Assembly (NCBI GenBank): GCA_041937175.2
Contig: CP166615.1
Coordinates: forward strand, 2,848,001-2,912,000
Direction of reading: 5' to 3'
Length of the DNA: 64,000 nucleotides
From: Limnothrix sp. BL-A-16
GTDB taxonomy: Bacteria > Cyanobacteriota > Cyanobacteriia > CACIAM-69d
Under the pieces are notes generated by a model. The model worked only from the letters and a program-made list of their open reading frames with translations. It searched no databases and was not told the DNA's origin. Below are positions 8,253-26,767 of this stretch, piece after piece (position 1 is the first letter of the stretch; the number at the start of each line of letters is the position of its first letter). The position numbers and the translations under genes are program-made.

Positions 8253-8260
8253 TCAAGCGC

Positions 8261-8406
8261 TAGGGCCTGTCGTCATTTCCTGAGATCAGACAACAACGGT
8301 TGATTTTCCATGCCCCAATCGTCGTAACAAGGGGCTTGAGCATCTTGTCCCCCACGATCTGCCAACATTGGAATTAGGGTTTCAGGCGATTTGACGACAC
8401 GCCCTA
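8261..8406. mobile_element. MITE-like element, family A copy 1 (146 bp)
   Basis: Terminal inverted repeats TAGGGCCTGTCGTCA / TGACGACACGCCCTA; central imperfect palindrome at 8328-8347; homologous to 13440-13585 and 47645-47790. Confidence 0.75.
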
Positions 8407-8637
8407 ATCCTAACCACTGAATTGCTGACCACCTTCCTAACCTGTTTCGGAGTCAACCATGGGCGACCATTGGATGGATTGGGCCACGGTGATTGGCTAT
8501 GTGGGATTCACGCTATTCATCATGTGGCAAATTTTTAGCCGATCGAAATAGACCTGCTAAATAGACCTGCTAATTGCGGGGTTGGGACAGGAAAGTGAGC
8601 ACAGGAGAGATTGCTGGCTCCGTTGGGCAAATTTTTC

Positions 8638-10290: not shown

Positions 10291-10293
10291 GCC

Positions 10294-10479
10294 CTAACGC
10301 CCCTGCTCGATCGCCGGTTTAGGGGGTTCGGGGGCGGGTTCAGCGCTGGGGCTGAAGGCTGGGCCCACCCAAGCCAGGGCGATCGCCCCCAGCACCACCC
10401 ACTGGGTCGCTTGCAGGAGCCGATCGGGCGATCGGGGGGCCGTTGAAGGGGGGGAGTTGGGGGGCAAATCCGGTTGCAT
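10294..10479 (-). CDS. Small single-TM hypothetical protein
   Basis: 61-aa ATG ORF with one hydrophobic helix (WVVLGAIALAWVG); stop lies 3 nt before the lnt start. Confidence 0.45.
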   Translation of the reverse strand: MQPDLPPNSPPSTAPRSPDRLLQATQWVVLGAIALAWVGPAFSPSAEPAPEPPKPAIEQGR

Positions 10480-10514
10480 AGTCCGTCTTGAGATTACTTT
10501 TGGAATTATTTTTC

Positions 10515-10594
10515 AGGTTCAATCAACCACAGGTTCAATCAACCACGGGTTTAATCAACCACGGGTTTAATCAACCAGGGGTTTAATCAACCAA
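10515..10594. repeat. Tandem repeat, 5 x 16 bp (RGGTTYAATCAACCAN)
   Basis: Units start at 10515, 10531, 10547, 10563, 10579; the last overlaps the PP2C stop codon. Confidence 0.9.
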
Positions 10595-11338
10595 ACGTTG
10601 AACCAGAATCAGTGTGACATCATCATCGGTGCGCTGGGCAATTCGATCGGACTCCAAAAACGCCCGCAGCCGATCGATCACGACGGCCAGGTCTTCGCTT
10701 TGGGCTAAAAACCGAAACAGAGGCTGAAAAAACGGCTGAAAAGGCGATTGATCGGGTTCCTGTAAGGCCAGACGCTGCAAACCATCGGAAAATAGCGCGA
10801 GAGACTGCCAATCACCAAGCCAAGTGACCAACTGGGGCGATCGGGCGGCCCCTGGTTCCTGCAAAAATCGAGTTTCGTTGGCAAATTCTCCCTGTTCCGG
10901 CTGCGTGAGCGTTTGCCAATTGCCCTGGGCATCTTGAATCACCACTGCCCCATCGCCAATTTGGGCGATCGCCAATCCCGTGGGTAGGGCCACCGCCACC
11001 ACCAACGTACAAGCTAGCTCTCGCAGGGCTAAATCCCGATCGCGCGCTGCCCGATCGACCGCCCACTGCGCCGCCCGCACCACCGCCCGCAACAAGGGCA
11101 ACCAATCCGCCACCGATCGGGGCGATCGCCGCCGCTGCCAACGGGGCAACAGCGTTAAAACCGTTTCTACCGCCACCTGGGCCCCCAAATCGGAGGCACT
11201 GGCCGATCCGGCCCCATCAGCCACCACCGCAAATCCTGCCCGATCGCCCAAGGCCCAACCGCTGGCATCTTGGCAAGGTTCCGCCGCCCGCCGATGCCGA
11301 CTACCCGCCACCGACAGGGCGATCGATGCCATCCGCAT
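10583..11338 (-). CDS. PP2C-family phosphatase (TerY-P-like, PP2C_2)
   Basis: SV.GSRH......CQDA, VADGAGSA, IGDG, GEFANETRF, FSDGL, RTDDDVTL motifs; start chosen at first ATG. Confidence 0.85.
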   Translation of the reverse strand: MRMASIALSVAGSRHRRAAEPCQDASGWALGDRAGFAVVADGAGSASASDLGAQVAVETVLTLLPRWQRRRSPRSVADWLPLLRAVVRAAQWAVDRAARDRDLALRELACTLVVAVALPTGLAIAQIGDGAVVIQDAQGNWQTLTQPEQGEFANETRFLQEPGAARSPQLVTWLGDWQSLALFSDGLQRLALQEPDQSPFQPFFQPLFRFLAQSEDLAVVIDRLRAFLESDRIAQRTDDDVTLILVQRLVD

Positions 11339-11397
11339 CGATTCCAGTTGCACTTCCAGTTGCAGCGCTGCAACTTCCTGACCAGTGACGCTCAATC

Positions 11398-12711
11398 CTA
11401 ACTCCTGTCTACACAAACCAGCGGCAACTCAATCATAAAGGTTGTGCCCACCCCCAACTGGGACTCCAACCACAATCGACCGCCATGCTTTTCTTCAATC
11501 ACTTGTCGAGCCAGGGTTAAGCCCAAGCCGGTTCCTTTGCCCACCAATTTGGTCGTAAATAAATGCTCAAAAATCTGGCTTTGTAGCTCCTCAGCAATGC
11601 CGCGTCCATTGTCTTGAATGGCTAGACGAACCGATTTTTGATCCGCCGAGAGGGCAGTGGTGATGGTAATTTGGGGCGGATGTTCGCTGAGTTCTTGAAA
11701 GTTATGATCTTGACAAGCTTCATCTAGCTCATCGATCGCATTCGCCAGCAAATTCATAAATACCTGATTCAATTGACCGGCAAAACATTCTACTTCAGGC
11801 ACATCGCCATAATTTTTAACCACCTGAATGGCCGGCCGATGATCATGGGATTTCAAGCGATGTTTGAGCAATAAAATAGTGCTGTCCAGTCCATCTTGCA
11901 AATCAAAACCAACGGGATATTCACTATCCAATCGCGAGAAAGTTCTTAAGCTATCACTAATCGTTTTAATGCGATCGATTCCCTGATTCATCGACTCCAA
12001 AAGCTTGGGCAAGTCCTGGCGAATAAATTCTAAATCCACCTCTTCAATGAGTTGTTGCACCTGCTGATGGGGATCGGGGTGATATTCCGCATAGGCATTC
12101 AACAGGGCAAACAGATCCTCCAGATGCTCCAATGCAGGGCGAATATTGCCCTTTAAAAACCCCAAAGGATTATTAATTTCATGGGCCACCCCGGCGACCA
12201 AATTCCCCAGGGCCGACATTTTTTCACTTTGCACCAGTTGAATTTGGGCCTGCTGAAGCTGTTCTACCACCTGTTCGAGGGTCGTGGACTTTTCTAAAAG
12301 CTGAGCTTCGGATTCTTGCAAGCGTCGTTCGGCCATCACTCGATCGGTCACATCTTGGGCGATCGAATAAATGGATAGCATCCGGCCTTCATCATCAAAA
12401 ACCGGTGTGTTAATCCATTCACAGATAATGACACTGCCGTTTTTGCAAATATTTTCGTTCTGACAAACGATCGTTTTTCGTTCCTGTAAAAGGGCCTCCA
12501 TCAGCGGTTTAATTTCTATTTGTACGGCTGGCGACACGATACGGCTAACCGGTTGCAGGTAAATTTCTTCCGCAGCGTAGCCAAAAATTTCTTCAGCAGC
12601 CGGGTTCCAACTGAGCACACAGAAATCTTGGTTCCATTCAATCAGCGCTAAAGGAGTTTGCTGAATCAGGAAACTGAGTTTTTCAGTGATTCCAAGAAAC
12701 TGGTTTGACAT
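11398..12711 (-). CDS. PAS-domain sensor histidine kinase
   Basis: PAS (IEWN..WNPAAEEIFGY, ICEWINTP), H-box VAHEINNP, N-box QVFMNLLANA, DNGRG, GKGTGLGL; upstream alternative starts (12774, 12798) fall inside a MITE. Confidence 0.9.
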   Translation of the reverse strand: MSNQFLGITEKLSFLIQQTPLALIEWNQDFCVLSWNPAAEEIFGYAAEEIYLQPVSRIVSPAVQIEIKPLMEALLQERKTIVCQNENICKNGSVIICEWINTPVFDDEGRMLSIYSIAQDVTDRVMAERRLQESEAQLLEKSTTLEQVVEQLQQAQIQLVQSEKMSALGNLVAGVAHEINNPLGFLKGNIRPALEHLEDLFALLNAYAEYHPDPHQQVQQLIEEVDLEFIRQDLPKLLESMNQGIDRIKTISDSLRTFSRLDSEYPVGFDLQDGLDSTILLLKHRLKSHDHRPAIQVVKNYGDVPEVECFAGQLNQVFMNLLANAIDELDEACQDHNFQELSEHPPQITITTALSADQKSVRLAIQDNGRGIAEELQSQIFEHLFTTKLVGKGTGLGLTLARQVIEEKHGGRLWLESQLGVGTTFMIELPLVCVDRS

Positions 12712-13597: not shown

Positions 13598-15529
13598 CTA
13601 GACCAATCGCGATTGGCGATAGAACTGCACCCGATCGCGCAGGGTATTGGCCGGGGTTTCTTGGCTCCAATGTTCCACCAAGGCATGGCCCAAGGCCCAG
13701 GCTTCCTGCTCCGGCGGTTGTTTGTTGTCGGTCACTAACGGCCACAGGGACAGCCAATCTAAATTGCGCGATCGCGCTTCGCCGTCCAAGCGGGCTGTTG
13801 GTTGCAGTAGGCTAAACAGGTCGTAGGCCAGTTGCAGTTTGCCAACCACCAAGGGTAATTGCTCGATCGGGATGCGCTCGGCCAGCAGATAGGCCAAGGT
13901 TGGAGAGCCGGTCATCACCCGCGAAATCAGTTGCAGAACAGGGCTTTTGAGAAACAGGGCCAGCCCTTGGGCGGTGGACATTTGGAACACATATTTATCA
14001 ATGATGCAAGCGGCGGCCGTGGCGCGGGCTTCCCGATCGCGCAGAAAGCGGGCCAGGCGCAGTTCCTGGGCTGGGCCGATCGCCTCTAGCAAAGCGAGGG
14101 AGAGGGTTTCCAGGCCCCAGGGCCCCCGTTCCCCCAACACCACGGGCAAGAATTGATCGCAATGGGCCCCCAGTAACTCAGCGCGATATTGCACAGCTTC
14201 TCGAATCGACTGCTCCTTGGGTCGATCGCCTCCCAGCCAGTCGTAGGGCGGTTGCCACTCTCGCAGGGGCCGCAAGCGATCCACCTGGGAAATGACCCCA
14301 ATCACCGGGGCTGTTACCCCAGCGGCCTGCAAATCCCGCAAACAGTCCAAATCCATCTGTAATGCCGGATCCAGCGCTGGAGTCACCAACAGGATCAAAT
14401 CTGCGGCCCGAGCGGCCGCCCGGGCTTGCTCTCCGGCCGTTGGGTTGCCCGCCTGTTCGTAGCCCGGTGAGTCCCATAGCCGCAACTGATCGCCCGTAGC
14501 GGCCACCCACTCATAGCTCACCACCCGATCCGTGTTGGGTAGCACATCCGTTTCCGCCAACTCCGCCGCAAACAGCCCATTCACCAAACTACTTTTGCCA
14601 GCTCCCGTTCGCCCCAACAGCAACACATTCACCACGGCGGTGGCGATCGCCTCTTCCGGTTCCGCTTGGGCAATCAAGGCTTGCAGAGTTTCGGTTTGGG
14701 CCTGGGGAATGGGTGAGGCGATCGGGGCGAAATTCTCCGGCGGCAACCCGGCCCCGCCGTACAGGGCGATCGCCTGGCGCGCCAAATTCCGCAAAGCCGC
14801 TTCCCGCAACACTTGCCCCAAATTCGCCAACAGGGCGCGATCGGCCCGATTGCTGGAGCCTTGGGTGATCGTTCGAGCCACCGCCGCCACCGGATTCAAA
14901 AACCACTGGGCCCACTGCCAAGCCCGAAACGCCTTGCGCATGGAAGGCTCCAGCTTTTGATACAGCGTATAGGTCTCATAGGCTTGGCCCACGGTCACCT
15001 GGCCCAAAACCGGCTCCAGTTGCTGCATCCAGCGATCCAAATCATCCACCGTCCCCCGCATTAACCGATAGGCTTGGGGCACATAGATACTGAGCAAGGG
15101 ATAGCTGGACTCCGGGTAATAGGCCCGAGCCACCGCCGTTGTTAAGCTCAAACAGCGCTGCCAAAACTGATCCCAATTTTCCCAAGGGGCCGGGTCGTTT
15201 TGGGAAGCTTGCAACAGTTCCGTCAAGGCCACTTCCGCCCGCGCCAACGCGCCTTCATTCACCGGCACAGCAGCCCCGCCCCGTTTTTCCCAATCCGCCA
15301 ACCCCGCCGAGGCGATCGCCGCTTCCACTTGTCCCACCATGGATTTTGTCCAGTGCACCAGCAACCAGCGCCAGCCCACCAGCACCAGCGTAAACAGCCC
15401 CCAAATCCAACTTAAGCCCCAAGCGTGCAACTGGGAGCCGGCCGCCCACAGCACCACTCCCACCATCACCACCAACGGCAGCGCCAACACCACCCACTGC
15501 CACCGCGCCAGTCGCACCATTGCCGCCAA
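13598..15529 (-). CDS. Membrane-anchored GTPase family protein (MMR_HSR1-type)
   Basis: Two N-terminal TM helices; G1 GRTGAGKSS, G3 DSPG, G4-like SQVD. Confidence 0.82.
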   Translation of the reverse strand: MAAMVRLARWQWVVLALPLVVMVGVVLWAAGSQLHAWGLSWIWGLFTLVLVGWRWLLVHWTKSMVGQVEAAIASAGLADWEKRGGAAVPVNEGALARAEVALTELLQASQNDPAPWENWDQFWQRCLSLTTAVARAYYPESSYPLLSIYVPQAYRLMRGTVDDLDRWMQQLEPVLGQVTVGQAYETYTLYQKLEPSMRKAFRAWQWAQWFLNPVAAVARTITQGSSNRADRALLANLGQVLREAALRNLARQAIALYGGAGLPPENFAPIASPIPQAQTETLQALIAQAEPEEAIATAVVNVLLLGRTGAGKSSLVNGLFAAELAETDVLPNTDRVVSYEWVAATGDQLRLWDSPGYEQAGNPTAGEQARAAARAADLILLVTPALDPALQMDLDCLRDLQAAGVTAPVIGVISQVDRLRPLREWQPPYDWLGGDRPKEQSIREAVQYRAELLGAHCDQFLPVVLGERGPWGLETLSLALLEAIGPAQELRLARFLRDREARATAAACIIDKYVFQMSTAQGLALFLKSPVLQLISRVMTGSPTLAYLLAERIPIEQLPLVVGKLQLAYDLFSLLQPTARLDGEARSRNLDWLSLWPLVTDNKQPPEQEAWALGHALVEHWSQETPANTLRDRVQFYRQSRLV

Positions 15530-15834
15530 CTCCCAAGGCTACGGCTCCCATTCTAGAAACCGAAAGTGGCGATCGACCAAGCTTTTTTATCATTAGTGAG
15601 AAAGGGCTGCGAAATTATCGCCCCACGGCAGTCGTTAATTGTTCGATCGGGAAAAGCGATCGGGGCGATCGGTTGACCAAACAGCAAGATCAGGAGATCG
15701 TCATAGCCCTAAAAATATTGAGATTGGCATCTCACAGAGAGAAATTGCTAAGCTAGATACCTTGATTGCTTGACGATTCAATCAATTAGGAACCCAAAAA
15801 CGCCTAATTACGGCTAAATAACGGATCAACTCAT

Positions 15835-18800
15835 ATGCCCGCACTGAAAACCTCTTCAACGAATTCTTCTCCTGAAATTCCTGGATATGGAATCATTGAG
15901 CAGATTCATCATGGGTCACGCACATCCGTTTATCGCGCCGTGCAGCACAGCAATCAGCAAATCGTTATCTTAAAAGTCCTACATTCAAACTATCCCACCT
16001 TTGGTGAATTAATTCAGTTTCAAAATCAATACACAATCACTCAAAATCTTGACGTTTCAGGAATTGTGAAACCCCTGGGACTAAAGCCCATTGGCAATAG
16101 CTATACCCTGGTCATGGAAGACTGTGGTAGCATCTCTCTTCAGCAATATTGTCGGCAACAACAACTCAAGCTGATTGATGTGCTAACAATTGCTCTGAAA
16201 ATGACTACCATTCTTCAAGAGCTACACCAACAACGAGTTATTCATAAAGATGTTAAACCTGCCAATATTCTTATTCATCCCCAATCGAAAGAAATCAAAT
16301 TAATTGACTTTAGCATCGCCTCTTTACTACCCAAAGAGACACAAGAAATCCAGAATCCAAACGTCCTCGAAGGAACCCTTGCTTATCTGGCACCAGAGCA
16401 AACTGGGCGGATGAATCGAGGCATCGACTACCGCGCCGACTTCTACGCCTTGGGCGTGACGTTGTATCAACTCCTCAGTGGCCAACTACCATTTGAATCC
16501 GATGATCCAATGGAGTTGGTGCATTGCCACATCGCTAAAGTACCTGTGCCCGTTGAACAAATCAATCCAGCGATTCCAAAGACCGTAGGGGCGATTGTTG
16601 CTAAGTTAATGGCCAAAAATGCGGAAGATCGCTATCAAAGTGCCCTAGGACTAAAACATGATTTGCAACAATGTTTAACCCAATGGCAGGAAACAGGTGC
16701 TGTCACTGATTTTGAATTGGGTCAGCGGGATTTGAGCGATCGCTTTCTGATTCCCGAAAAACTCTATGGCCGCGAAACCGAGGTTCAAGCATTGCTGAAT
16801 GCCTTCGATCGCGTTTCTCAGGGCACCTCAGAACTCATGCTGGTGGCTGGATTTTCTGGAATTGGTAAAACTGCTGTAGTGAACGAAGTTCACAAGCCAA
16901 TTACCCAGCAAAAGGGCTATTTCATTAAGGGAAAATTTGACCAATTCAATCGTAATATTCCCCTGCTGGCATTTGTACAAGCCTTACGCGACTTGATGGG
17001 GCAGCTTTTATCAGAATCCGATGCGCAATTAGCCCAATGGAAGATCAAGATTCTCGAAGCAGTCGGTAACAATGGTCAAGTTCTGATTGATTTAATTCCT
17101 GAGCTGGAACAGATCATTGGATTGCAACCCCCTGCCCCCGAGCTTTCTGGCGAAGCCGCCCAAAATCGCTTTAACCGTCTATTTCAAAACTTCATTCGAG
17201 TTTTTGCTAAGCCCGAGCATCCCCTTGTCATTTTTATCGATGACCTGCAATGGGCTGACTCCACTTCTTTGAGTGTGATGCAAAACTTGTTGACGGAAGC
17301 TTGCTCCCATGCTCAGTGTCTTTTGGTTTTGGGAGCCTATCGAGATAATGAAGTGCTTCCTGGTCATCCCTTTTTAATCACTGTTAAGGCCTTAGAAAGT
17401 GCCCATATTCCCCTGGAAACCCTCATTCTCGGCCCCTTGAGTGAGGAGAGCCTAAACCAGTTAATTGCTGATACTTTCCGAGCCACCAGCAGCAAAGTAC
17501 AGCCCTTAACCCATCTGGTTATGCAAAAGACCCAGGGCAATCCATTCTTTGCGACCCAATTCCTCAAAGCGCTACACCAAGATCATCTCATTACCTTCGA
17601 TCGGGAAGCGGGTCACTGGCAATGCGACTTAGTGCAGGTACAAGATGCGGCCCTAACCGATGACGTGGTGGAGTTCATGGCCTTGCAATTGCAGAAATTA
17701 CCCATAGCTACACAAGAGCAGCTTAAATTTGCAGCCTGTGTCGGGGCCAGATTTGACCTCAAAACCTTGGCAATTGTGTCAGAACAGAGCGAAATTCAAG
17801 CGGCTTCAGCCCTATGGTCAGCGCTGCAAGAGGGGTTGATTTTGCCGGAGGGCAAAATTTATAAGTTCTACGCGGATCGCGATTCATCCCAGGTCGATCA
17901 ATCTTGGGGTGAAGAGATTTCTGGGCAAATTCAGTACCGCTTTTTTCATGATCGGGTGCAACAGGCCGCCTACTCACTGATTCCTGAAGATCAAAAACAG
18001 GTCACTCACCTGAAGATGGGTCAGTTACTCCAAAGCCGTTTGTCGGCAGCCGAGCGCGAGGAAAAACTGTTTGATATTGTCGGCCATTTGAACCTAGGGC
18101 ATCGATTATTAAGTCAGCAACATGAGCGGGAGTCTTTGATTCGCCTCAATCTTGCCGCAATCGAAAAGGCTAAAAAGGCAACCGCTTACGGTGTGGCTCA
18201 GGATCTCGTAACGATCGGGCTGGAATTACTTTCAGAAGAACCGTGGCAAAACCAGTATGAGTTGAGCTTAAAGCTCCATCAAATGGCTGCTGATGTGGCC
18301 TGTTTAAAGACCGATTTTGAGGAAGCAATCACCCAAGTTCAACAGGTTTTAGATCAGGCCCAGACGGTCTTGGATAAAGTGCCCGTTTACATGGTGAAAA
18401 TCAGGGTTTTGACGGCTCAGGATCGGTTAGCAGAGACGCTCGCCGTTGCGGCCCAAGCCATCACTCAATTAGGGGTCGAGTTTCCCTCAGAGATCACATC
18501 AAACATCAGCGCCCAAGCTGTGCAAAGGGCAGAGATCGAGTTAGAAGGGAAAGTGATTGAGAATTTGATCAACTTGCCCGTCATGGATGACCCAACCATC
18601 ATTGCTGCCATGGAATTGTTGGGAATGATCATGCCAGCGGTATTTCTTGCCAACCCCACATTGCTGCCCTTTGTTTGCGCCAAAATTGTGAGTCTGTCGC
18701 TCCAGTTTGGCAATGCGCCTGTTTCAAGTGTTGGCTATGCCACCTACGGCTTGGTTTTAGCCACGGGATTGGGTCAGGTCGATCGGGGCTATCGCCTGGG

Positions 18801-21258
18801 GAAAATGGCCTTAGCTTTAATCGATCGGCTCAATACAAAAGCATATAAGTGCCTGGCCATTCTTTTCTTTTCTGCCTGTGTCCAGCATCAGAAAGAGTCA
18901 ATGACTGCCATGGCTGATCTGCTCAAGCAGGGATATTTAGCCGGAGTGGAAGCGGGTGATTTTTTGTATGTAGGCTATTGTCTAGCCCACTATTTTTACG
19001 CTCATTTCTATGCGGGGAAAGAACTAACTGCCCTCCAAACAGAAGTTAATCAATTTCGTTCTGCTATTGCTTCCCTCAAGCAAGATAGTGCCCTGGCATA
19101 CTTGCAAATGACGAATGAATTCTTTGATCGCTTGCTCGTAACACACCACCAACCCACTCTCTTGATTGGCGATAGTTACGACGAGACGAAGGTTTTTCCA
19201 CGGCATCTTCAAAATCAGCAATTGACAGATCTTGGAATTGCTTACGCCTACAAGCTGATCTTGGCCTACTTGTTTGGTGACCATAGCCTTGCTTTTGAAT
19301 ACCTCAATGAAGTTAAGAAATATTTAGATAACATCGTCGGGATGCTGCATATTCCCGCCATTCATTTCTATGGGGGATTAACGTATCTCGCGGTGGCTGC
19401 CGGTAAGCCTGAAGATGAGCAATTAGAACTACTTGCTTTGGCGGAACAGCACTACGCTAGCCTATCTGCTTGGGCAGACAATGCTCCAATGAATTACCAG
19501 CATAAGCTGGATCTCCTGGCAGCAGAAAAACATCGGTTTTTGGGCAATGTCTTGGAGGCTATTAACAGCTATGAGCAGGCCATTGCGGGTGCTAAAGCCA
19601 ATGGCTTCATGCAAGAAGAAGCTTTAGCCAACGAATTGGCAGCTAAATTCTATCTCGATTGGGGTAAGGAAAAAATCGCCGCCAGTTATATGCAGGAAGC
19701 CTACTATGGCTATGCTCGCTGGGGGGCAAAGGCCAAAGTTATTGATTTAGAGCAGCGCTACGCCCAATTACTGCAACCGATTCTGCAAGCGGCTAATCAA
19801 CCCTTCGCCCTTTTAGAAACCCTAGCGACGATCGCAAATCCTGCTGATTCACCACGCGCCACTCCGCATGGAAGTTCTAGCGGCAGCATTAACCAAATGC
19901 TTGATTTTACTGCCCTGCTACAGGTCTCTCAAAATCTGGTCAGCACGATCGCCCTGGATGAATTGCTACAAACCCTAGCTCAGACGATGTTGAAAAACTC
20001 GGGAGCCGATCGATGTGCCTTAATCCTTTGGGAGGACGATCGATGGCAAGTGAGAGTGATGGCCAATCCAGAGCAGGTGACACTTCAATCAACACCCTTA
20101 GACGATAATCCCAACATTCCGATCAGGCTCATTCAATATGTGAAGAACTTGGCGATGACGGTTGTGATCAATGACCTTGATACCGATTTGCCTGTAATTG
20201 GTGATTATCTAAACTGCTATCAGCCCAAGAGTGCCTTGTGTTTGCCGATTCTCAATCAGGGTAATCTGCGGGCTATTTTATACCTGGAAAATCGATCAAC
20301 TAGTGGTGTATTTACCAATGATCGCATCACTATTCTGAAGTTTCTTTGCAGCCAAGCCGCCATTTCCCTGGAAAATGCTCGGCTTTATCAACAAGCTCAA
20401 ACCTATGCTCAACAGTTGGAACAGTCCCAATTGCAAATGGTGCAGAGCGAGAAAATGGCTTCTCTCGGAAACCTAGTGGCGGGGGTGGCCCATGAAGTTA
20501 ACAACCCGATCGGCTTCCTCAATGGCAGCATTAACAATGGCAAGGATCACGTCAAAGACCTACTAGAACATTTGTCCCTGTATCAGCAGCATTATCCCAA
20601 TCCCGCTGTTCCAATTCAGGATCATGCTGAAGATATCGACTTGGAATATATTTGCGAAGATCTACCTCAGTTGCTCAAGTCAATGCAAGGGGCAACCGAT
20701 CGAATTAAATCGATTAGCACCAGTCTCCGCATTTTCTCTCGCGCCGATACGGAATATAAGGTGAGTGCAAATTTGCATGAGGGGATTGACAGCACGGTGC
20801 TGATTTTGAAATACCGACTCAAGGCAAATCCGTTTCGTCCGGCGATCGAGATCAAGACGCATTATGGACACATCCCGGAAGTGGAGTGTTTTCCCGGACA
20901 GATTAACCAGGTGTTTATGAATATCCTGGCCAATGCGATCGATGTGTTTGATGAAATGGTGCAAGGTCGATCGTTTAAGGAATTGGAAGCGCATCCCCAA
21001 ACTATTACGATCAGCACAACGGTTGTTGATGATCAAGTGCGGATTTCCATTCGGGATAATGGCAAGGGCATCAGCGAGGAGGTGCAAGCCAAAATTTTTG
21101 ACCATTTGTTCACCACGAAAGGTGTGGGTAAAGGTACGGGGTTAGGGCTAACGATCGCCCGCCAAATTGTCGAGAAAAAACATGGCGGCAGTTTGACAGT
21201 TCAGTCAGAATTGGGACAAGGAACTGAATTTTTGATTCAACTGCCGATTAAAGGCTAG
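15835..21258 (+). CDS. Multidomain Ser/Thr kinase - AAA ATPase - GAF - histidine kinase (HstK/Pkn-type)
   Basis: IHKDVKPANI and DFS kinase motifs; Walker A GFSGIGKT, Walker B IFIDDLQWAD; GAF (ILYLEN..F); VAHEVNNP and GKGTGLGL. Confidence 0.92.
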   Translation: MPALKTSSTNSSPEIPGYGIIEQIHHGSRTSVYRAVQHSNQQIVILKVLHSNYPTFGELIQFQNQYTITQNLDVSGIVKPLGLKPIGNSYTLVMEDCGSISLQQYCRQQQLKLIDVLTIALKMTTILQELHQQRVIHKDVKPANILIHPQSKEIKLIDFSIASLLPKETQEIQNPNVLEGTLAYLAPEQTGRMNRGIDYRADFYALGVTLYQLLSGQLPFESDDPMELVHCHIAKVPVPVEQINPAIPKTVGAIVAKLMAKNAEDRYQSALGLKHDLQQCLTQWQETGAVTDFELGQRDLSDRFLIPEKLYGRETEVQALLNAFDRVSQGTSELMLVAGFSGIGKTAVVNEVHKPITQQKGYFIKGKFDQFNRNIPLLAFVQALRDLMGQLLSESDAQLAQWKIKILEAVGNNGQVLIDLIPELEQIIGLQPPAPELSGEAAQNRFNRLFQNFIRVFAKPEHPLVIFIDDLQWADSTSLSVMQNLLTEACSHAQCLLVLGAYRDNEVLPGHPFLITVKALESAHIPLETLILGPLSEESLNQLIADTFRATSSKVQPLTHLVMQKTQGNPFFATQFLKALHQDHLITFDREAGHWQCDLVQVQDAALTDDVVEFMALQLQKLPIATQEQLKFAACVGARFDLKTLAIVSEQSEIQAASALWSALQEGLILPEGKIYKFYADRDSSQVDQSWGEEISGQIQYRFFHDRVQQAAYSLIPEDQKQVTHLKMGQLLQSRLSAAEREEKLFDIVGHLNLGHRLLSQQHERESLIRLNLAAIEKAKKATAYGVAQDLVTIGLELLSEEPWQNQYELSLKLHQMAADVACLKTDFEEAITQVQQVLDQAQTVLDKVPVYMVKIRVLTAQDRLAETLAVAAQAITQLGVEFPSEITSNISAQAVQRAEIELEGKVIENLINLPVMDDPTIIAAMELLGMIMPAVFLANPTLLPFVCAKIVSLSLQFGNAPVSSVGYATYGLVLATGLGQVDRGYRLGKMALALIDRLNTKAYKCLAILFFSACVQHQKESMTAMADLLKQGYLAGVEAGDFLYVGYCLAHYFYAHFYAGKELTALQTEVNQFRSAIASLKQDSALAYLQMTNEFFDRLLVTHHQPTLLIGDSYDETKVFPRHLQNQQLTDLGIAYAYKLILAYLFGDHSLAFEYLNEVKKYLDNIVGMLHIPAIHFYGGLTYLAVAAGKPEDEQLELLALAEQHYASLSAWADNAPMNYQHKLDLLAAEKHRFLGNVLEAINSYEQAIAGAKANGFMQEEALANELAAKFYLDWGKEKIAASYMQEAYYGYARWGAKAKVIDLEQRYAQLLQPILQAANQPFALLETLATIANPADSPRATPHGSSSGSINQMLDFTALLQVSQNLVSTIALDELLQTLAQTMLKNSGADRCALILWEDDRWQVRVMANPEQVTLQSTPLDDNPNIPIRLIQYVKNLAMTVVINDLDTDLPVIGDYLNCYQPKSALCLPILNQGNLRAILYLENRSTSGVFTNDRITILKFLCSQAAISLENARLYQQAQTYAQQLEQSQLQMVQSEKMASLGNLVAGVAHEVNNPIGFLNGSINNGKDHVKDLLEHLSLYQQHYPNPAVPIQDHAEDIDLEYICEDLPQLLKSMQGATDRIKSISTSLRIFSRADTEYKVSANLHEGIDSTVLILKYRLKANPFRPAIEIKTHYGHIPEVECFPGQINQVFMNILANAIDVFDEMVQGRSFKELEAHPQTITISTTVVDDQVRISIRDNGKGISEEVQAKIFDHLFTTKGVGKGTGLGLTIARQIVEKKHGGSLTVQSELGQGTEFLIQLPIKG

Positions 21259-21259
21259 A

Positions 21260-21500
21260 TCAGGCTGCGAAACATTGCTCAACGGCAATCATTCGATCGG
21301 GAAAGGCGATCGGGGCGATCGTTTTGCCAGGTTGCAGGATCAGCTGATCGCCATAACCGTCTGCACTAGGCGATCGATAAATTTCCAAATGACGTTGCTC
21401 CAAGTCCACTAACCAATAGTCGGCGATTGCCTCGCGGGCATAGAGTGCGCCTTTGACCTGGCGATCGTAGCGAAACGTCTTGTTTGGTACTTCGATCAAC
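21260..21500 (-). pseudogene. Uma2-family endonuclease, C-terminal fragment only
   Basis: LIEV....RYDR..K..LYA...I.DYWLVDL....LEIYR.P...GY motifs; the N-terminal half is absent. Confidence 0.75.
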
Positions 21501-21588
21501 AAATTTTATCGTTCCCACATTCAACATCAGAATGATGGAAAGTACTATCATTCATGATAATGTAAACAATCAATAATTATCCACGACC

Positions 21589-22716
21589 ATGTTTCAGTTC
21601 GGTATTGAGCATGAGGTCGCGTTGATTAATCCCGAAGGTCAACTGGCGGATTTCTCGCGAGCAAAATTTTCTGAACTAGCTCAAATTATTGAACGCCTGC
21701 CCTCATATGAAAATGATAGTAATCAGCTTCATATTGGAGATGCTGGAATCCGACAGAAGCGATGGTATCTTGAAGGAATGGAGAGATTTTCCAATACAGG
21801 AAAATTGATCGACTTTGTTCCAAAGGGAATCGAAATTAGAACAACAATCCATTCTGACATTCCAAGTGTAATTTCTGAATTAAAAACAAGCTTTCATTTA
21901 TTGCGTAAAGTATCCTTGGAGTTGGGTTTTTCTCCAGTTCTGGTGACATTTAATCCGAATTTGACTATTTTTGATCCCGAGCCTCCTTTTAATGAATATG
22001 AAACAAAATGGCTAGAAGCATTTCCTGAAGAACAAACAGATCATATTGCAATGCTCTCATATGGGCCAGATCTGAACCTGTCGTTAATAGGAATGTCGCC
22101 TGAGGAAATTATTGATACTGGTCAAAAACTGATTTACTACAGTCCTTATATTATCCCCTTTAGCTATAGCTCTCCTTTTTTTAGCGGTTCTCTATGGGAT
22201 GGTTTGTCAATTCGGACATTTATACGAACGGGATTAAGGTCAACGGTTAGGGTTTTTCTAGAGAAGCCTGAACAACAGATTTCTAGTCAGCCAATTTTGA
22301 CAAAGGTAGCGCGTTTGCCAGCGGAAGTGGGTCGCATTGAATTTAAGGCGTTTGATAGTTGTGATGACTTTGCGATATACGCGAGTTTATTAGCCCTGTT
22401 AAAGGGGATTGTGCTGGATAAGTCGTTACTGGGCCGATCGATCCTGCCTGATGTGGCGCTACACCAAACTTCTGCGCGATTTGGATTTGACCATGCGGTG
22501 ATTTTTGACAATGCCAATCAGGTATTGCAAGCGGCTCAATCTGCGTTGAATGACAATGCGGATCCGGATTCGGAGCTTTTGACACCACTGTTCACAAGCC
22601 TGGAGCAGCGAAAAACACGATCACACGAGCTGATTGAATCATTTCATCGGCTCGGCTCGATCGAGAAAGTCCTACAAGATACTTACCAATTGCCGGGGCT
22701 GGACTTCATGGCTTAG
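21589..22716 (+). CDS. Glutamate-cysteine ligase family 2 (GCS2) / carboxylate-amine ligase-like protein
   Basis: FGIEHE, GIEIRT, SSPF, GRIEFKAFD motifs; AT-rich codon usage. Confidence 0.7.
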   Translation: MFQFGIEHEVALINPEGQLADFSRAKFSELAQIIERLPSYENDSNQLHIGDAGIRQKRWYLEGMERFSNTGKLIDFVPKGIEIRTTIHSDIPSVISELKTSFHLLRKVSLELGFSPVLVTFNPNLTIFDPEPPFNEYETKWLEAFPEEQTDHIAMLSYGPDLNLSLIGMSPEEIIDTGQKLIYYSPYIIPFSYSSPFFSGSLWDGLSIRTFIRTGLRSTVRVFLEKPEQQISSQPILTKVARLPAEVGRIEFKAFDSCDDFAIYASLLALLKGIVLDKSLLGRSILPDVALHQTSARFGFDHAVIFDNANQVLQAAQSALNDNADPDSELLTPLFTSLEQRKTRSHELIESFHRLGSIEKVLQDTYQLPGLDFMA

Positions 22717-22800
22717 GAATGTGTAGCGACTGTCGCTTGCTTGGAGAACCGGAGCCTAGGGATGCCTGTGATGCAATCCTTTTTAAGGATAAATTTTATT

Positions 22801-22926
22801 GTTCCCACGTTTATTGTTCCTACGTTCAATGTGGGAATGGATTCCTAGATGCTCTGCGTCGTGCCCCCGCGATTTAGAAGGACGCAGAGCTTCAAAAAAA
22901 CATTCCCATGATCTGCGTGGGAATGA
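22801..22926. repeat. Degenerate REP-doublet (REPIN-like) hairpin
   Basis: GTTCCTACG...GTGGGAATG and CATTCCCA...GCGTGGGAAT outer palindromes with inner GCTCTGCGTC / GACGCAGAGC inverted repeat. Confidence 0.6.
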
Positions 22927-23069
22927 TGAGATGAATTATCCAGCTTTTGATGTGATTGATTTATGGAATTTGGGTAGTGCCGTAATTCAGTAATGATGAG
23001 CTAGTGAAAGCCTTGCAGTGTAAGCGATCAGTGACTGAAAATCATCACCTCACAGGCACTACCGGCTTG

Positions 23070-24581
23070 TTAATTACTCTCAGGCAAGTTTTCACACTGA
23101 TCATCGCGCCATTTTAGCCAAAACCTTAATATATCGACGTAACTAATAACACCACGTAGTTTCAACTTGCTATCTTTTTTGTCACAAACCAAGAAAGAAG
23201 ATGCTGGAGAGTTTCCGTAAAATGGCTTCCAGAAGCTGTCTAAAATATCGGCAACTTTATCGTCTGGCTTTGGGATACAGGGCAGATGTTCAACTTTTGT
23301 CATCATTTCACTGACACTAATTTCACCCAGTTCAGGAAACTCAGGGTGAACGTATTTTTTGATTTTAATGTCTTCTAGAAAGCCAACAACATCACTTTTT
23401 TCAATATCAGTTTCACCACTTTCTAGTACTGGAAAGGAGCGACGCTTAGTCACATCTGAAGCCATCTTGGCAAGACTTAAATCCATTGCATTATTAAGAC
23501 AATCGATTTTTGCAGATCCCATGAGAGCAACTTGATGGACTTTTAAGTCATGCAAGAAATCTTCTTGTCCTTTAATAAACTTCCTTAGAATATCAGTGTA
23601 GGAGACAAAACCCTTTAGCTGTTTATTTTTATCGAGCACAAGCACACCACTAACATATGTCAATCGTCCTGCGCCAATTCTTTGTTTTTCACACAATATA
23701 CCAATAGCCTCCTCGATCATTGATTCTGGGCTGAGATAAACCAACGTACCTGTTCCAAGATGAGGGAAGACACTAGAAATTTTCTCCATGCCTTTACTCA
23801 GTAAGATACGGTTAAGCTTGGTTCGATCAAGATTGATTAGTGAATTTTGGAGCTGATCTAGATCGTCATTACTGGGAGGTAGCTGATCAGCAATGTCGCG
23901 ACGACTTGCAATTCCTAAACATTCATCACCCTCAGGTGCAAGGATTGGAATGTGACGAACGCCTTTAACCATCATTCTGTAGTAGAGATCACTGAAATTC
24001 TGATTGCTGCGGACAGTGACAAGATCCTTGGCAGAAGTCATCAGATCTTTGATTGTATCCTTGGCGCTTGTACAGACCATATCCACTGACTCCTTGAGGA
24101 AACTAGTAATTGTGATGAGACTTTCTTCACTGAAAATGGATATGTCTATCATATTAACGGACACATCTGCTCTTGCCAACTCAATTGACTGAACAAGGGC
24201 ATTTAAAACTTCATCACTATTTCGCTCGACATCATAAATCAGAAGAAGCGAGCTCATTTTTGAAAAAGATAGTGCCTTTAAAATTTCCTCATCAAAGGAC
24301 TTATCTAGAGAAAGGCAGCCATAATCATTTGGTAAGAAAGATACATATGCTTTGGGTTGAGTTAAAAATTCAGTATTTAAAAAAACAGATTTGCTGGTAA
24401 GCAAAACTTGTTGTTCTAGGTCACAGAAAGATTTTTCAATAATCTTTGCCCAAAAACTTTCATTTTCTCCATAACTGATGCATACGTCTATTGGAGAAGA
24501 TTGTATATTTAAACTCAAGTCGGAATCTAAGCTTGAAAGTTCTGATGCTGAGTTGGTCAACTTCTTGAAGATTTCAAACAT
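23070..24581 (-). CDS. TIR-like domain + four CBS domains (two Bateman modules)
   Basis: N-terminal DVCISY...WAKII and DY...S.DEEILKAL resemble TIR; CBS motifs GVRHIPIL/LGIASRRDI, VLVLD/GFVSYTDI, RRSFPVL/VVGFL, GVISYVDI; ATG 5 nt after the protease stop, preceded by AGGA. Confidence 0.75.
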   Translation of the reverse strand: MFEIFKKLTNSASELSSLDSDLSLNIQSSPIDVCISYGENESFWAKIIEKSFCDLEQQVLLTSKSVFLNTEFLTQPKAYVSFLPNDYGCLSLDKSFDEEILKALSFSKMSSLLLIYDVERNSDEVLNALVQSIELARADVSVNMIDISIFSEESLITITSFLKESVDMVCTSAKDTIKDLMTSAKDLVTVRSNQNFSDLYYRMMVKGVRHIPILAPEGDECLGIASRRDIADQLPPSNDDLDQLQNSLINLDRTKLNRILLSKGMEKISSVFPHLGTGTLVYLSPESMIEEAIGILCEKQRIGAGRLTYVSGVLVLDKNKQLKGFVSYTDILRKFIKGQEDFLHDLKVHQVALMGSAKIDCLNNAMDLSLAKMASDVTKRRSFPVLESGETDIEKSDVVGFLEDIKIKKYVHPEFPELGEISVSEMMTKVEHLPCIPKPDDKVADILDSFWKPFYGNSPASSFLVCDKKDSKLKLRGVISYVDILRFWLKWRDDQCENLPESN

Positions 24582-24586
24582 AAATA

Positions 24587-25687
24587 TCAATCCTGTCCTT
24601 GAATTTCATAAATCTCTCGAAGGCAATCCGAAGTAAACTTGTATGTGAACTTCTCAAAATCTTGCTTGAGCTGTGTAGGGAGAGCATTTGAAAAACACTC
24701 ATTTTGCGTCTCAAGTCCCAGGAGCATTAAAACGAAATGCTCAGGGGTAAGACGATCACTGTAATCATACTCTTCTTTGCAAAAAAACTTAAGCATTCGA
24801 GCTTTCATTTCACACTTTACAAATAATTTGCGAAATTCATGCTCTTCAATGTATGGAGAGTCTGGGGAGATTTTCTTGACTTTCCGGATAATTTCCTCAG
24901 TCTTTGACTCATCAATTTTAAACTGAAGTCTGTGCTTAATCGATTTCAAAAAACTTCGCAATATTTCATAAGTTGATTGCTCGCCGTCATTCGATCTCTC
25001 TGGCTTTTTGAGAACATCTGATTGGACACTTTCGTAGAATTTGCCTAAGTCTTCTAGTGATCGTGAAGCCAGAATTGTTTTCGCAATATCCACGTTTTTT
25101 GAAATCGAATCTTTCAAAAAGCCAAAAATATACTCAGCCGGAATTCCTGATGCACCCTCTGACTGTTTACGATCATAGGTTTCATTAACGATTCCGCAAA
25201 CCTTGCCGGTCTTTGGATTCCAAAGTGGGCTACCGCTCCAGCCAGGCTTTATGGGTATATCAGTATTGAGCGATAGCCTCCTAGTACCATCGTCACGCTT
25301 GGTCTCTCCCGTAAATTTAAAGTTTGTTGGACGTTGTTCTTCTTCAAACCCTTCTGGCCATCCCCATCCTGTTAGATCATCATTCTTTGCAATAGATGTA
25401 GAAAGATATATGGAAGGATGTGAACCAATGTCAGTTATACCTAACAATGCCACGTCTAATTCATTGTCTATGTCGTAGAGAATTGCACTTTTTTTATCTT
25501 TCTCGAATGAAACCTGAATATCATTACATCCAATGAAATCACTGTCGTCCTGAGCATCCGAGTCAACTACTACGTGAGCGCAAGTCAACATAAGAGTCGG
25601 GGCAATGAAAAAAGCAACTCCGCGCTTTGGTGAGTCAACTCTTACGATGCAGCTATCGACATCTTCCTGTGTTAAATGCTTTCCCAT
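24587..25687 (-). CDS. Trypsin-like serine protease (Trypsin_2) with uncharacterised C-terminal domain
   Basis: Catalytic triad TCAH(38)VV, LD(78)VALL, GWS(151)GSP; no signal peptide. Confidence 0.88.
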   Translation of the reverse strand: MGKHLTQEDVDSCIVRVDSPKRGVAFFIAPTLMLTCAHVVVDSDAQDDSDFIGCNDIQVSFEKDKKSAILYDIDNELDVALLGITDIGSHPSIYLSTSIAKNDDLTGWGWPEGFEEEQRPTNFKFTGETKRDDGTRRLSLNTDIPIKPGWSGSPLWNPKTGKVCGIVNETYDRKQSEGASGIPAEYIFGFLKDSISKNVDIAKTILASRSLEDLGKFYESVQSDVLKKPERSNDGEQSTYEILRSFLKSIKHRLQFKIDESKTEEIIRKVKKISPDSPYIEEHEFRKLFVKCEMKARMLKFFCKEEYDYSDRLTPEHFVLMLLGLETQNECFSNALPTQLKQDFEKFTYKFTSDCLREIYEIQGQD

Positions 25688-25700
25688 AGTTTTGATAGGC

Positions 25701-26021
25701 TCAATCTTGCTTTGGCTTGGCTGATTCCCATTCCAAGTTTACTTTTATATTTGCTTTGGCCGCACCCTTTACTAAGACAGCAGTCAACTTGCCGGATTCA
25801 ACTGCCAGCTCAAAGCCAAACTCCAGAGAGGCTTTAGATGCTTGTGCCTTACGAACCACATCTCGCAGGGCCACTAGCGTTTGTTCAATCGTGGCAGAAG
25901 CGTCTTTGAAATCAAAAGTAGAAGATGAAACTTTTTGCCGGCCACGCTTAAAAGTTGTTTCAACTTTCAAAGTGGAGTCATCAGGAAGACGAACTGTAAT
26001 GATTTCTGTATCTTCGCTCAT
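25701..26021 (-). CDS. Trypsin-co-occurring domain protein (Trypco1 / CU044_2847-like)
   Basis: 106 aa with LEFGFELAVESGKL...KG...ANIKVNLEW C-terminal motif, 13 nt upstream of the trypsin gene. Confidence 0.8.
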   Translation of the reverse strand: MSEDTEIITVRLPDDSTLKVETTFKRGRQKVSSSTFDFKDASATIEQTLVALRDVVRKAQASKASLEFGFELAVESGKLTAVLVKGAAKANIKVNLEWESAKPKQD

Positions 26022-26109
26022 TGAATTGAACAGCTTACTTCAGTTCAAGCTAGCACTTGAACAAGTGAACGTCAATAAGTCTTGAACTTAACCATTTAAG
26101 GCTGGTGAC

Positions 26110-26125
26110 TGTGATCTGAATCACA
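26110..26125. promoter_or_regulatory. CRP (SyCRP1-type) binding site
   Basis: TGTGATCTGAATCACA = perfect TGTGA-N6-TCACA between the divergent Trypco1 and rimI starts. Confidence 0.6.
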
Positions 26126-26179
26126 AAGAATCTGAGTTTGTGATTAAATTTGCACTGCAACGTAGCTGGATTTATTTCG

Positions 26180-26767
26180 ATGCGATCGCTCTGTTTACAA
26201 CTGCTGAATCATGACCATCTCGATCAATTGGTAGCGATCGACCAGCTCGCCCTGGGCGGCCTGTGGAGCGCCGATACCTATGCCCGCGAACTCGACAGCC
26301 CCAATAGTGATTTGCTCGGGGCGATCGATCCGCAAGGACAACTGATCGGATTTGGTTGTGCTTGGGCCATTGTTGACGAGTGCCACATCACGGCGATCGC
26401 CCTGCGACCGGAATTTCAGCGTCAGGGCTTGGGCCAAACCCTGTTGTGGGGCCTGTTGAGCCTGGCGCGGCAACGGGAAATGAAGCGGGCCACCCTGGAA
26501 GTGCGGCCGAGCAACCAAGCGGCCCTGTCGCTCTACGAAAAATTTGGCTTCCAAGAGGCCGGCCGTCGCAAACGCTACTACGCCGATGGCGAAGATGCGG
26601 CGATCCTGTGGTTAGGCAAGTTGGATTGGCCCCAGTTTGCTCAACAGCTCGATCGCACCGCTGCTGACCTGAGCGATCGACTGGCGCAACATCAATGGCA
26701 GTGGTGGGGAGAGATTGTGCCCCCAGCCGCCGGGGTCGGCAGCCCCCCAAGCCATGCGCTAGATTAA
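26180..26767 (+). CDS. rimI: Ribosomal-protein-alanine N-acetyltransferase
   Basis: DECHITAIA..P..QRQGLG, ATLEVR.SN..A..LY.KFGF...GRRK.YY. Confidence 0.9.
   Translation: MRSLCLQLLNHDHLDQLVAIDQLALGGLWSADTYARELDSPNSDLLGAIDPQGQLIGFGCAWAIVDECHITAIALRPEFQRQGLGQTLLWGLLSLARQREMKRATLEVRPSNQAALSLYEKFGFQEAGRRKRYYADGEDAAILWLGKLDWPQFAQQLDRTAADLSDRLAQHQWQWWGEIVPPAAGVGSPPSHALD

Follow-up and report, generated by a model that had tools for sequence, protein, structure and literature searches.

Kaur et al. (2020; PMC7159879) defined Trypco1 and Trypco2 as the partners that trypsin domains have in MoxR–vWA ternary systems. In a recent preprint (Evans et al. 2025; PMC12642450) they have been renamed Pepco and are reported to be beta-barrel pore toxins. 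Pepco from Streptomyces (SsPepco) is described there as forming 9–10-mer beta-barrels which resist sodium dodecyl sulphate. The trypsin domain of the adjacent Avs4 protein cuts Pepco after Ile97, a tail of about 2 kDa is removed, and the cell is then killed. Deletion of Pepco or mutation of the catalytic serine is reported to abolish toxicity, and Pepco modules are reported to protect against phage. The sensors given in that account are FGE, transmembrane STAND and peptidoglycan-binding domains. Here we describe a locus in which a Trypco1–trypsin pair is accompanied by a different candidate sensor. It is a trio of genes in a 64,000-nucleotide stretch of the cyanobacterium Limnothrix sp. BL-A-16 (contig CP166615.1; the whole stretch is called the window, and positions are window positions). 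The trio encodes a Trypco1/Pepco protein (gene 1), a trypsin-like protease with a C-terminal domain of its own (gene 2) and a protein with four CBS domains (gene 3).

The trio may be a mobile, proteolysis-gated cell-death module of the abortive-infection type with the four-CBS protein as its sensor in trans, a reading for which we hold belief and doubt in about equal measure. Gene 1 would be a latent effector; cleavage of its C-terminal tail by gene 2, a cytoplasmic trypsin, would allow it to form a beta-barrel pore. Gene 3 would take the place of the STAND or MoxR NTPase, or of the fused sensor, of other Pepco–protease systems. It would bind an adenosyl ligand (AMP, ADP, ATP or a related nucleotide signal) and act in trans to activate or silence the protease, probably via the private C-terminal domain of the latter. 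The N-terminal domain of gene 3, flavodoxin-like and possibly TIR-derived, would be an optional add-on. We infer Pepco cleavage and pore formation by the trio from its homology to a single system, examined experimentally in a preprint, and we also infer ligand binding, contact between the CBS protein and the protease, and an anti-phage role. The Trypco1/Pepco–trypsin killing module is the known element. The new element is likely to be the control part, that is, the private protease C-terminal domain together with a four-CBS protein in the sensor position, without an NTPase.

Like the described Pepco–protease modules, the trio has a Trypco1 gene immediately upstream of a co-oriented cytoplasmic trypsin with an intact triad, and both are known from cyanobacteria, in surroundings of the defence-island type. 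For the described Pepco proteases, however, the further component, fused or separate, is a STAND ATPase, an FGE domain, a peptidoglycan-binding domain or a MoxR–vWA partner, whereas the protease of the trio carries an unmatched C-terminal domain and is accompanied by a free-standing four-CBS protein. The vWA–MoxR–VMAP/iSTAND ternary systems, reported mostly from cyanobacteria and other multicellular bacteria (PMC7159879), share the Trypco–trypsin pair, and the original prediction for this locus had placed the pair among these systems of the Aravind group. The trio is not a member, because their NTPase and vWA parts are absent. No MoxR, STAND, GTPase or vWA/VMAP component was found in the trio or its immediate flanks at the five loci where it has been verified, namely the window, a metagenome contig (L003) and three Microcoleus loci (L014, L016 and L017). 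Nor does any of these five trios contain a P-loop NTPase, so that the absence first noticed in the Limnothrix operon is general among them.

The closest precedent for a CBS module in defence is DS-11, a CBS–HEPN protein validated as a defence protein in the DefensePredictor study (PMC13092281). A CBS residue contacting adenine is reported to be required, and the CBS module is thought to gate the death effector by binding an unidentified adenine derivative. By the authors' account, no characterized defence system had CBS domains, DS-11 being the only one. The parallel lies in a CBS module thought to gate a death effector, but DS-11 is a single protein with a HEPN nuclease, whereas the trio combines four CBS units with a protease and a predicted pore. 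Gene 3 scores 20.8 bits against the NCBIfam DS11 model (cut-off 260), with no stretch passing, and no HEPN domain is present in the trio. Among the papers listed by full-text literature searches, none describes the Trypco1–trypsin–four-CBS combination. The term CBS is absent from the main text of PMC7159879 and PMC12642450, whose domain tables may list CBS associations, and from Kaur et al. 2021 (PMC8195603) and preprints on TIR systems and STAND receptors. PADLOC, checked for an existing name, has no model for gene 1 or gene 3, and its matches to gene 2 are to protease pieces only, of RT-Protease XI, Avs1b and others.

The Trypco1–trypsin pair and the conserved trio

The three genes share the minus strand (Table 1). 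As had been noted at the outset, they are separated by short stop-to-start gaps, of 13 nucleotides between genes 1 and 2 (25688–25700) and 5 nucleotides between genes 2 and 3 (24582–24586). The open frame of gene 3 reaches 24590, and an alternative TTG codon 9 bases upstream of the ATG would give a protein of 506 residues; the ATG at 24581 agrees with the start of the L003 orthologue.

Table 1. Features of the trio and its surroundings, in window positions (ORF, open reading frame; GC, guanine plus cytosine)
Feature	Position	Strand	Description
Gene 1	25701–26021	minus	ORF, 106 residues, Trypco1/Pepco family, predicted latent beta-barrel pore effector
Gene 2	24587–25687	minus	ORF, 366 residues, trypsin-like serine protease
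Gene 2, residues 1–189	25121–25687	minus	Cytoplasmic trypsin-like serine protease domain, H38/D78/S151
Gene 2, residues 195–366	24590–25105	minus	C-terminal domain private to trio proteases; proposed docking or regulatory domain for the CBS protein
Gene 3	23070–24581	minus	503 residues from the ATG at 24581, four-CBS protein
Gene 3, residues 30–167	24081–24494	minus	Flavodoxin-like (beta-alpha)x5 N-terminal domain, possibly TIR-derived
Gene 3, residues 172–497	23091–24068	minus	Four tandem CBS units (two Bateman modules), AMPK-gamma type; predicted adenosyl-ligand sensor
Insertion	21474–26178		Strain-specific, 40.3% GC, ORF375 and trio; absent from two same-genus genomes
ORF375	21589–22716	plus	375 residues, co-inserted, convergent with the trio
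Dispersed repeat	22967–23063		About 95 nucleotides, directly 3' of gene 3

Gene 1 matches Pfam Trypco1 (PF19493; E 3.8e-15, 56.7 bits against a cut-off of 24.6) and NCBIfam CU044_2847 (E 5.6e-16, 59 bits against a cut-off of 23), which confirms the motif originally recognised in its sequence. Searched against PDB sequences, the Trypco1 profile had no match with an E below 0.04. The protein, which has been aligned with the trio orthologues, ends in ...KANIKVNLEWESAKPKQD. Its tail, ESAKPKQD, follows a strand in which I92, V94 and L96 alternate, to be compared with the charged, proline-containing tail past a conserved isoleucine cleavage site that marks the Pepco modules. Since Trypco1 is Pepco, reported to be a pore toxin unleashed by a protease (PMC12642450), gene 1 rather than the CBS protein is the probable killing effector. 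For the same reason the CBS protein is more likely to be a sensor or regulator than an effector.

Gene 2 matches Pfam Trypsin_2 over residues 24–166 (E 2.8e-13, 51.2 bits against a cut-off of 27.6). The residues of its triad are invariant in all five aligned trio proteases and its translation has no N-terminal hydrophobic stretch, in keeping with the cytoplasmic trypsin of intact triad that had been proposed. The remainder of the protein (residues 190–366) has no match in Pfam, PADLOC or NCBIfam. The C-terminal domain resembles no fold in the protein atlas structures above TM 0.40, and among PDB sequences nothing falls below E 0.6. The five trio proteases nevertheless align end to end, with 23–26% identity between lineages, and the C-terminal domain is conserved to its last residues in all five. 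A profile built from them retrieves 16 full-length proteins of 357–368 residues (E<=2.6e-90, coverage of at least 92%), after which the scores drop sharply, protease-only matches starting at 8.8e-43. Given this drop, the C-terminal domain of about 175 residues defines a small, discrete family. The sole full-length relative of gene 2 in a first search was P0004, with 55% identity. The remaining matches listed share mainly the protease domain, which is fused in them to NACHT/STAND, TIR, TPR, FGE, GUN4 and other domains. Viral contigs gave weak matches only to the protease domain.

The trio is a real, conserved and horizontally moving unit. At all five verified loci, which span at least three genomic contexts, the order is Trypco1, then a trypsin of about 366 residues with the C-terminal domain, then a four-CBS protein. 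CBS homologues alongside Trypco–trypsin pairs, which the original prediction required of other genomes, are thus found at these loci and, by inference, at a sixth in Trichocoleus. On the 657-kb cyanobacterial metagenome contig (L003) the same three genes, confirmed by Pfam, lie in the same order as a 3-kb low-GC island (0.39–0.47 against 0.60–0.65) between a DUF362 gene and valS. The window trio is likewise a low-GC island, and its neighbours differ from those in L003. The three Microcoleus trios (L014, L016 and L017, identical to L018, L065 and L064, respectively) encode a Trypco1 protein of 111–112 residues, a trypsin of 368–370 residues and a four-CBS protein of 330–347 residues without the N-terminal domain. 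They were retrieved by a profile search of genome contigs with a narrower alignment; the alignment of the trypsin pair had retrieved none. In Trichocoleus sp. FACHB-262, one of the 16 full-length proteases (P0198) and a protein with the N-terminal domain and four CBS units (P0131) have consecutive GenBank accessions on one 32.2-kb contig, an order from which the two genes are presumably adjacent.

The Limnothrix genome contains a second Trypco1 gene (L002; G000:C1:228693-231977), in a classic-looking conflict-system context unlike that of the trio. From a reading of the sequence alone, it is divergent from a large gene whose product joins a caspase-like protease to a P-loop NTPase, and it adjoins two genes with an FGE-sulfatase-type motif.

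The four-CBS protein and its N-terminal domain

Gene 3 matches Pfam CBS (E 3.8e-17, two stretches passing) and no other Pfam family. An AlphaFold2 model built from a 48-sequence alignment has a pLDDT of 89.8 and a pTM of 0.75, and all four CBS units are visible in it; a model made without an alignment (pLDDT 34.6) was discarded. In Foldseek comparisons the CBS module of the model matches MJ1225 with E 3.5e-16, and AMPK gamma and Sso3205-AMP with E 1e-15 to 2.5e-15. VIA-align gives a Z score of 24.1 to MJ1225 (3lfz; root-mean-square deviation 3.8, 261 of 280 residues aligned), 23.0 to Sso3205-AMP (3ddj), 20.2 to yeast SNF4 and 20.1 to human AMPK gamma (4zhx_E), and also lists archaeal four-CBS ribosome dormancy factors among the structural matches. 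The modelled four-CBS module thus has an AMPK-gamma-like fold.

The ribose/phosphate-binding motif of CBS domains, h-h-[ST]-x-x-D, is present in CBS1 (GIASRRD), CBS2 (GFVSYTD) and CBS4 (GVISYVD). Across these three units the serine or threonine column is kept in 45–47 of the 48 sequences and the aspartate column in 38–47. Gene 3 therefore resembles AMPK gamma, MJ1225 and Sso3205 in having four tandem CBS units in one chain, with these proteins as its best structural matches and ribose motifs in three of the four units. It differs from them in sequence (identity only 13–20%), in its conflict-system partners and in carrying the signatures of its own family, RHxPV, SRRD, IPP and, in CBS3, an acidic pair; its ligand binding is predicted. 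A role in sensing nucleotides suits the modelled fold of the CBS part. The original prediction had the TIR–CBS protein supply either sensing or an effector function; the first alternative accords with the fold, whilst the second probably belongs to gene 1.

That prediction had also described gene 3 as TIR-like with four CBS motifs, and proposed modelling and Foldseek as a check. The four CBS units stand, with an AMPK-gamma-like arrangement, but the homology to TIR is weakly supported, there being no match to Pfam TIR or TIR_2 at E<=0.1 and a generic flavodoxin-like fold. The secondary structure read from the model is (beta-alpha)x5, and the conserved elements are an I35-S36-Y37 motif, P84 and E99. 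VIA-align gives the domain Z scores of 10.3 to a receiver domain and 10.1 to a flavodoxin. No TIR chain appears among the best 50 matches shown, a list that is filled by CBS matches and hence is not evidence of absence. In the protein atlas the domain reaches TM 0.66–0.70 to flavodoxins and 0.58–0.65 to TIR_2 clusters, and feature matches to TIR_2/ThsB score 0.84–0.86 as leads only. In hhalign comparisons, a 12-sequence profile of the domain aligns with the TIR of distant TIR/four-CBS relatives over 74 columns (probability 29%, P 5.8e-4), pairing the ISY motif and the conserved glutamate, and with an independent profile of trypsin-fused TIR_2 over 25 columns (probability 5.5%, P 7e-3). In the controls, TIR against TIR gave 94% (P 1.2e-7) and unrelated pairs P 0.11–0.63. 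The domain is best described as flavodoxin-like and possibly TIR-derived; it is not an established TIR.

These comparisons bear on another account of the trio, in which the TIR-like/CBS protein is an effector, or a sensor and effector combined, acting in the stead of an NTPase. The protease, aided by Trypco1, would cleave or activate it, producing an adenine-nucleotide-gated switch with a TIR-type output that consumes NAD or makes a signal. Both hhalign values against TIR profiles lie above noise, and true TIR_2 domains occupy the same N-terminal position in distant family members (5 of 26). E99, in the helix after strand 3 of the model, is retained in 10 of the 12 sequences, at a position that we take to be where the catalytic glutamates of TIR domains sit. 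The third gene of all three Microcoleus trios, however, consists of CBS units only, Pfam finds no TIR in gene 3, and the best structural matches of the domain are receiver and flavodoxin folds. Moreover, Trypco1/Pepco as reported already provides an effector (PMC12642450). Type IV Thoeris is a precedent for a TIR protein with a protease in cell-death defence, and so possibly a likeness to the trio; as described, its protease is caspase-like, whereas the trio has a trypsin, a dedicated Pepco substrate and an unproven TIR that is dispensable in Microcoleus. An effector role for the TIR-like/CBS protein is accordingly judged unlikely. Because it is absent from all three Microcoleus trios, the N-terminal domain is not essential to the core mechanism.

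The wider four-CBS family

A word-indexed search for relatives of gene 3 returned two proteins out of 5.8 billion, one of them gene 3 itself. An exhaustive HMMER search gave 65 matches at E<=1e-3, 18 of them at <=1e-30. Viral contigs held no relative of the four-CBS protein. A Pfam architecture scan covered 26 of the 65. Sixteen contain only CBS in Pfam, ten of these having the N-terminal domain of the window protein and four being CBS-only proteins. The others are fused to TIR_2 (five), CHAT and TRADD-N (two), STAND and TPR (one) or LexA and S24 (one), with one low-complexity false match. From these architectures, the four-CBS module behaves as a regulatory unit that can be moved between conflict-type proteins.

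The family is present in 4 of 400 other genomes in a sample of the phylum and 2 of 400 in a sample of the class, and in neither of two same-genus genomes nor any of seven other genomes of the order. Within the Microcoleaceae it occurs in 17 of 144 genomes, three of which carry the trio. All 11 genomes examined among the 14 without the trio (that is, all save G445, G450 and G470) contain two tandem four-CBS paralogues instead. At eight loci (L012 at 7775–11828, L013, L055, L058, L059, L061, L062 and L063) the tandem pair is preceded by a KAP-family NTPase and an adenylate kinase, whilst three loci end at a contig edge. The four-gene cluster comprises an adenylate kinase of about 195 residues, a KAP P-loop NTPase of about 450–480 residues and the two four-CBS paralogues of 310–377 residues. 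It seems to be a sister system of the trio, and no description of it was found in the literature examined. The link with adenylate kinase fits adenine-nucleotide sensing by the four-CBS module. A gene for Imm30 (immunity protein 30) lies directly downstream of the tandem pair at L058:8636-9217 and L060:3038-3619.

A broader proposal, which we put forward tentatively and regard as rather doubtful, is that cyanobacterial conflict systems have, in the four-CBS module, a hitherto undescribed receptor for small molecules that is portable. It would act in cis on CHAT/TRADD-N, STAND, TIR and LexA/S24, and in trans on trypsin–Pepco or on the KAP NTPase and adenylate kinase. Within the trio, the module would respond to adenylate energy charge, or to a nucleotide signal from its own TIR-derived N-terminal domain, by allowing the protease to open the Pepco pore.

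The four-CBS protein might, on the other hand, be a stoichiometric inhibitor which holds the protease inactive. Its loss, titration or ligand-induced release, for example upon shut-off of host synthesis, would then free the protease and lead to the pore, making the trio a three-part addiction or abortive-infection module. The tight coupling of the genes, with gaps of 13 and 5 nucleotides, recalls toxin–antitoxin operons, the private C-terminal domain of the protease always travels with the CBS gene, and the Microcoleus trios lie among neighbours of the toxin–antitoxin type, PemK and Phd/YefM. The conserved nucleotide-binding motifs and AMPK-gamma-like architecture nevertheless favour ligand sensing over a passive plug, and in the cis fusions of the module with CHAT, STAND and TIR the role of a labile antitoxin is less natural. 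Such an inhibitor is improbable.

Returning to the reading of the trio as a proteolysis-gated module with a four-CBS sensor, a number of points weigh against it. As applied to the trio, the Pepco mechanism depends on a single preprint about a single Streptomyces system. The isoleucine at which Pepco is cut has three candidate counterparts in gene 1 (I92, V94 and L96), and the tail past these sites is 10–14 residues long as against about 20 in SsPepco. CBS3 is without the canonical motif and has the acidic pair in its place. Contact between the protease C-terminal domain and the CBS protein is a proposal, and an adaptor domain shared by genes 2 and 3 was considered and rejected (hhalign P 0.11–0.34). 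The family is very rare, which makes its functional generality uncertain. Finally, the lack of a PADLOC model for the trio shows neither novelty nor function.

Insertion site, neighbours and significance

The host is a HIP1-rich cyanobacterium, with 74 HIP1 sites (GCGATCGC) in the window against a shuffle mean of 1.85. Between 16744 and 26181 there is none, so that the absence of HIP1 from the trio, amid flanks full of it, is as originally described. The outside density of 1.37 per kb predicts 4.0 sites in the 2,952-nucleotide trio (Poisson P(zero) = 0.018) and 12.9 in the 9,437-nucleotide gap (P(zero) = 2e-6), values which are generous as low GC alone reduces the expected count. The estimate of about 40% GC, against the high fifties elsewhere, was also close to the mark: the trio has 39.4%, as against 57.1% for the window outside 15500–26178. 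Homology in blastn to the same-genus genome G402 stops at 21473 and restarts at 26179 (26177 in the case of G401), delimiting an inserted segment of 4.7 kb.

The slot lies between a Uma2 remnant and rimI–clpC, and its cargo differs among three genomes of one genus. Beside the same Uma2 remnant, G402 (L036) carries a GmrSD_N/GmrSD_C type IV restriction enzyme and G401 (L035) a NucS_C-like nuclease. The slot looks like a variable defence hotspot. This setting bears on a non-immune account, in which the trio would be a device for regulated proteolysis or cell death in energy stress or development, reading adenylate charge in darkness or starvation. Such a device would suit a fold shared with AMPK gamma and the archaeal four-CBS ribosome dormancy factors, and the adenylate kinase of the sister operons. 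It sits poorly, however, with the sporadic, strain-specific distribution and foreign composition of the trio, with the GmrSD or NucS-like nuclease that congeners carry in the same slot, and with the fusions of the family to CHAT/TRADD-N, STAND and TIR. Pepco modules, moreover, are reported to defend against phage (PMC12642450). The non-immune account is very unlikely.

ORF375, which was inserted together with the trio, has no Pfam or PADLOC match and no PDB sequence match below E 0.04. It shows a faint NCBIfam similarity to glutamate–cysteine/carboxylate–amine ligases (E 0.012–0.042, far below the cut-offs). It was considered as a fourth component and rejected, being absent from the flanks of L003, L014, L016 and L017. 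The core of the dispersed repeat has eight further matches in the genome beyond the window copy, with 75–94% identity (11 in all to a 291-nucleotide query), and G401 and G402 hold dozens more copies of the repeat, which is perhaps a miniature mobile element. An Rfam scan of 21000–26500 found no match. A scan for promoters and terminators was uninformative, giving two promoter-like sites, where 7.7 are expected, and no terminators.

On the far side of ORF375, at 15835–21258 on the plus strand, lies the gene for an 1807-residue protein. Its N-terminus is that of a Ser/Thr kinase (strong matches to PADLOC kinase models) and, from a reading of the sequence, its C-terminal end holds a histidine-kinase module. 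The gene has a GC content of 46.7%, yet is conserved with about 85–86% identity in a same-genus genome, and is for this reason placed outside the insertion.

Effectors gated by a protease are coming to be seen as a central principle of bacterial immunity, and the way in which the protease is triggered is known for few sensors. The trio points to a sensor class with one validated defence relative, DS-11: a four-CBS, AMPK-gamma-like protein which would act in trans and without an NTPase. If adenine nucleotides are what it reads, the energy or nucleotide state of the cell would be coupled directly to a death decision at a membrane pore. This would be a bacterial parallel to AMPK energy sensing combined with the protease-licensed pore formation of pyroptosis. 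Should the four-CBS module prove to be a portable receptor, the pathway would be NTPase-free, metabolite-gated and pyroptosis-like. The three genes are small (106, 366 and 503 residues), self-contained and readily expressed, so that the idea is directly testable, and the four-CBS family provides a handle for finding unannotated conflict systems in cyanobacteria.

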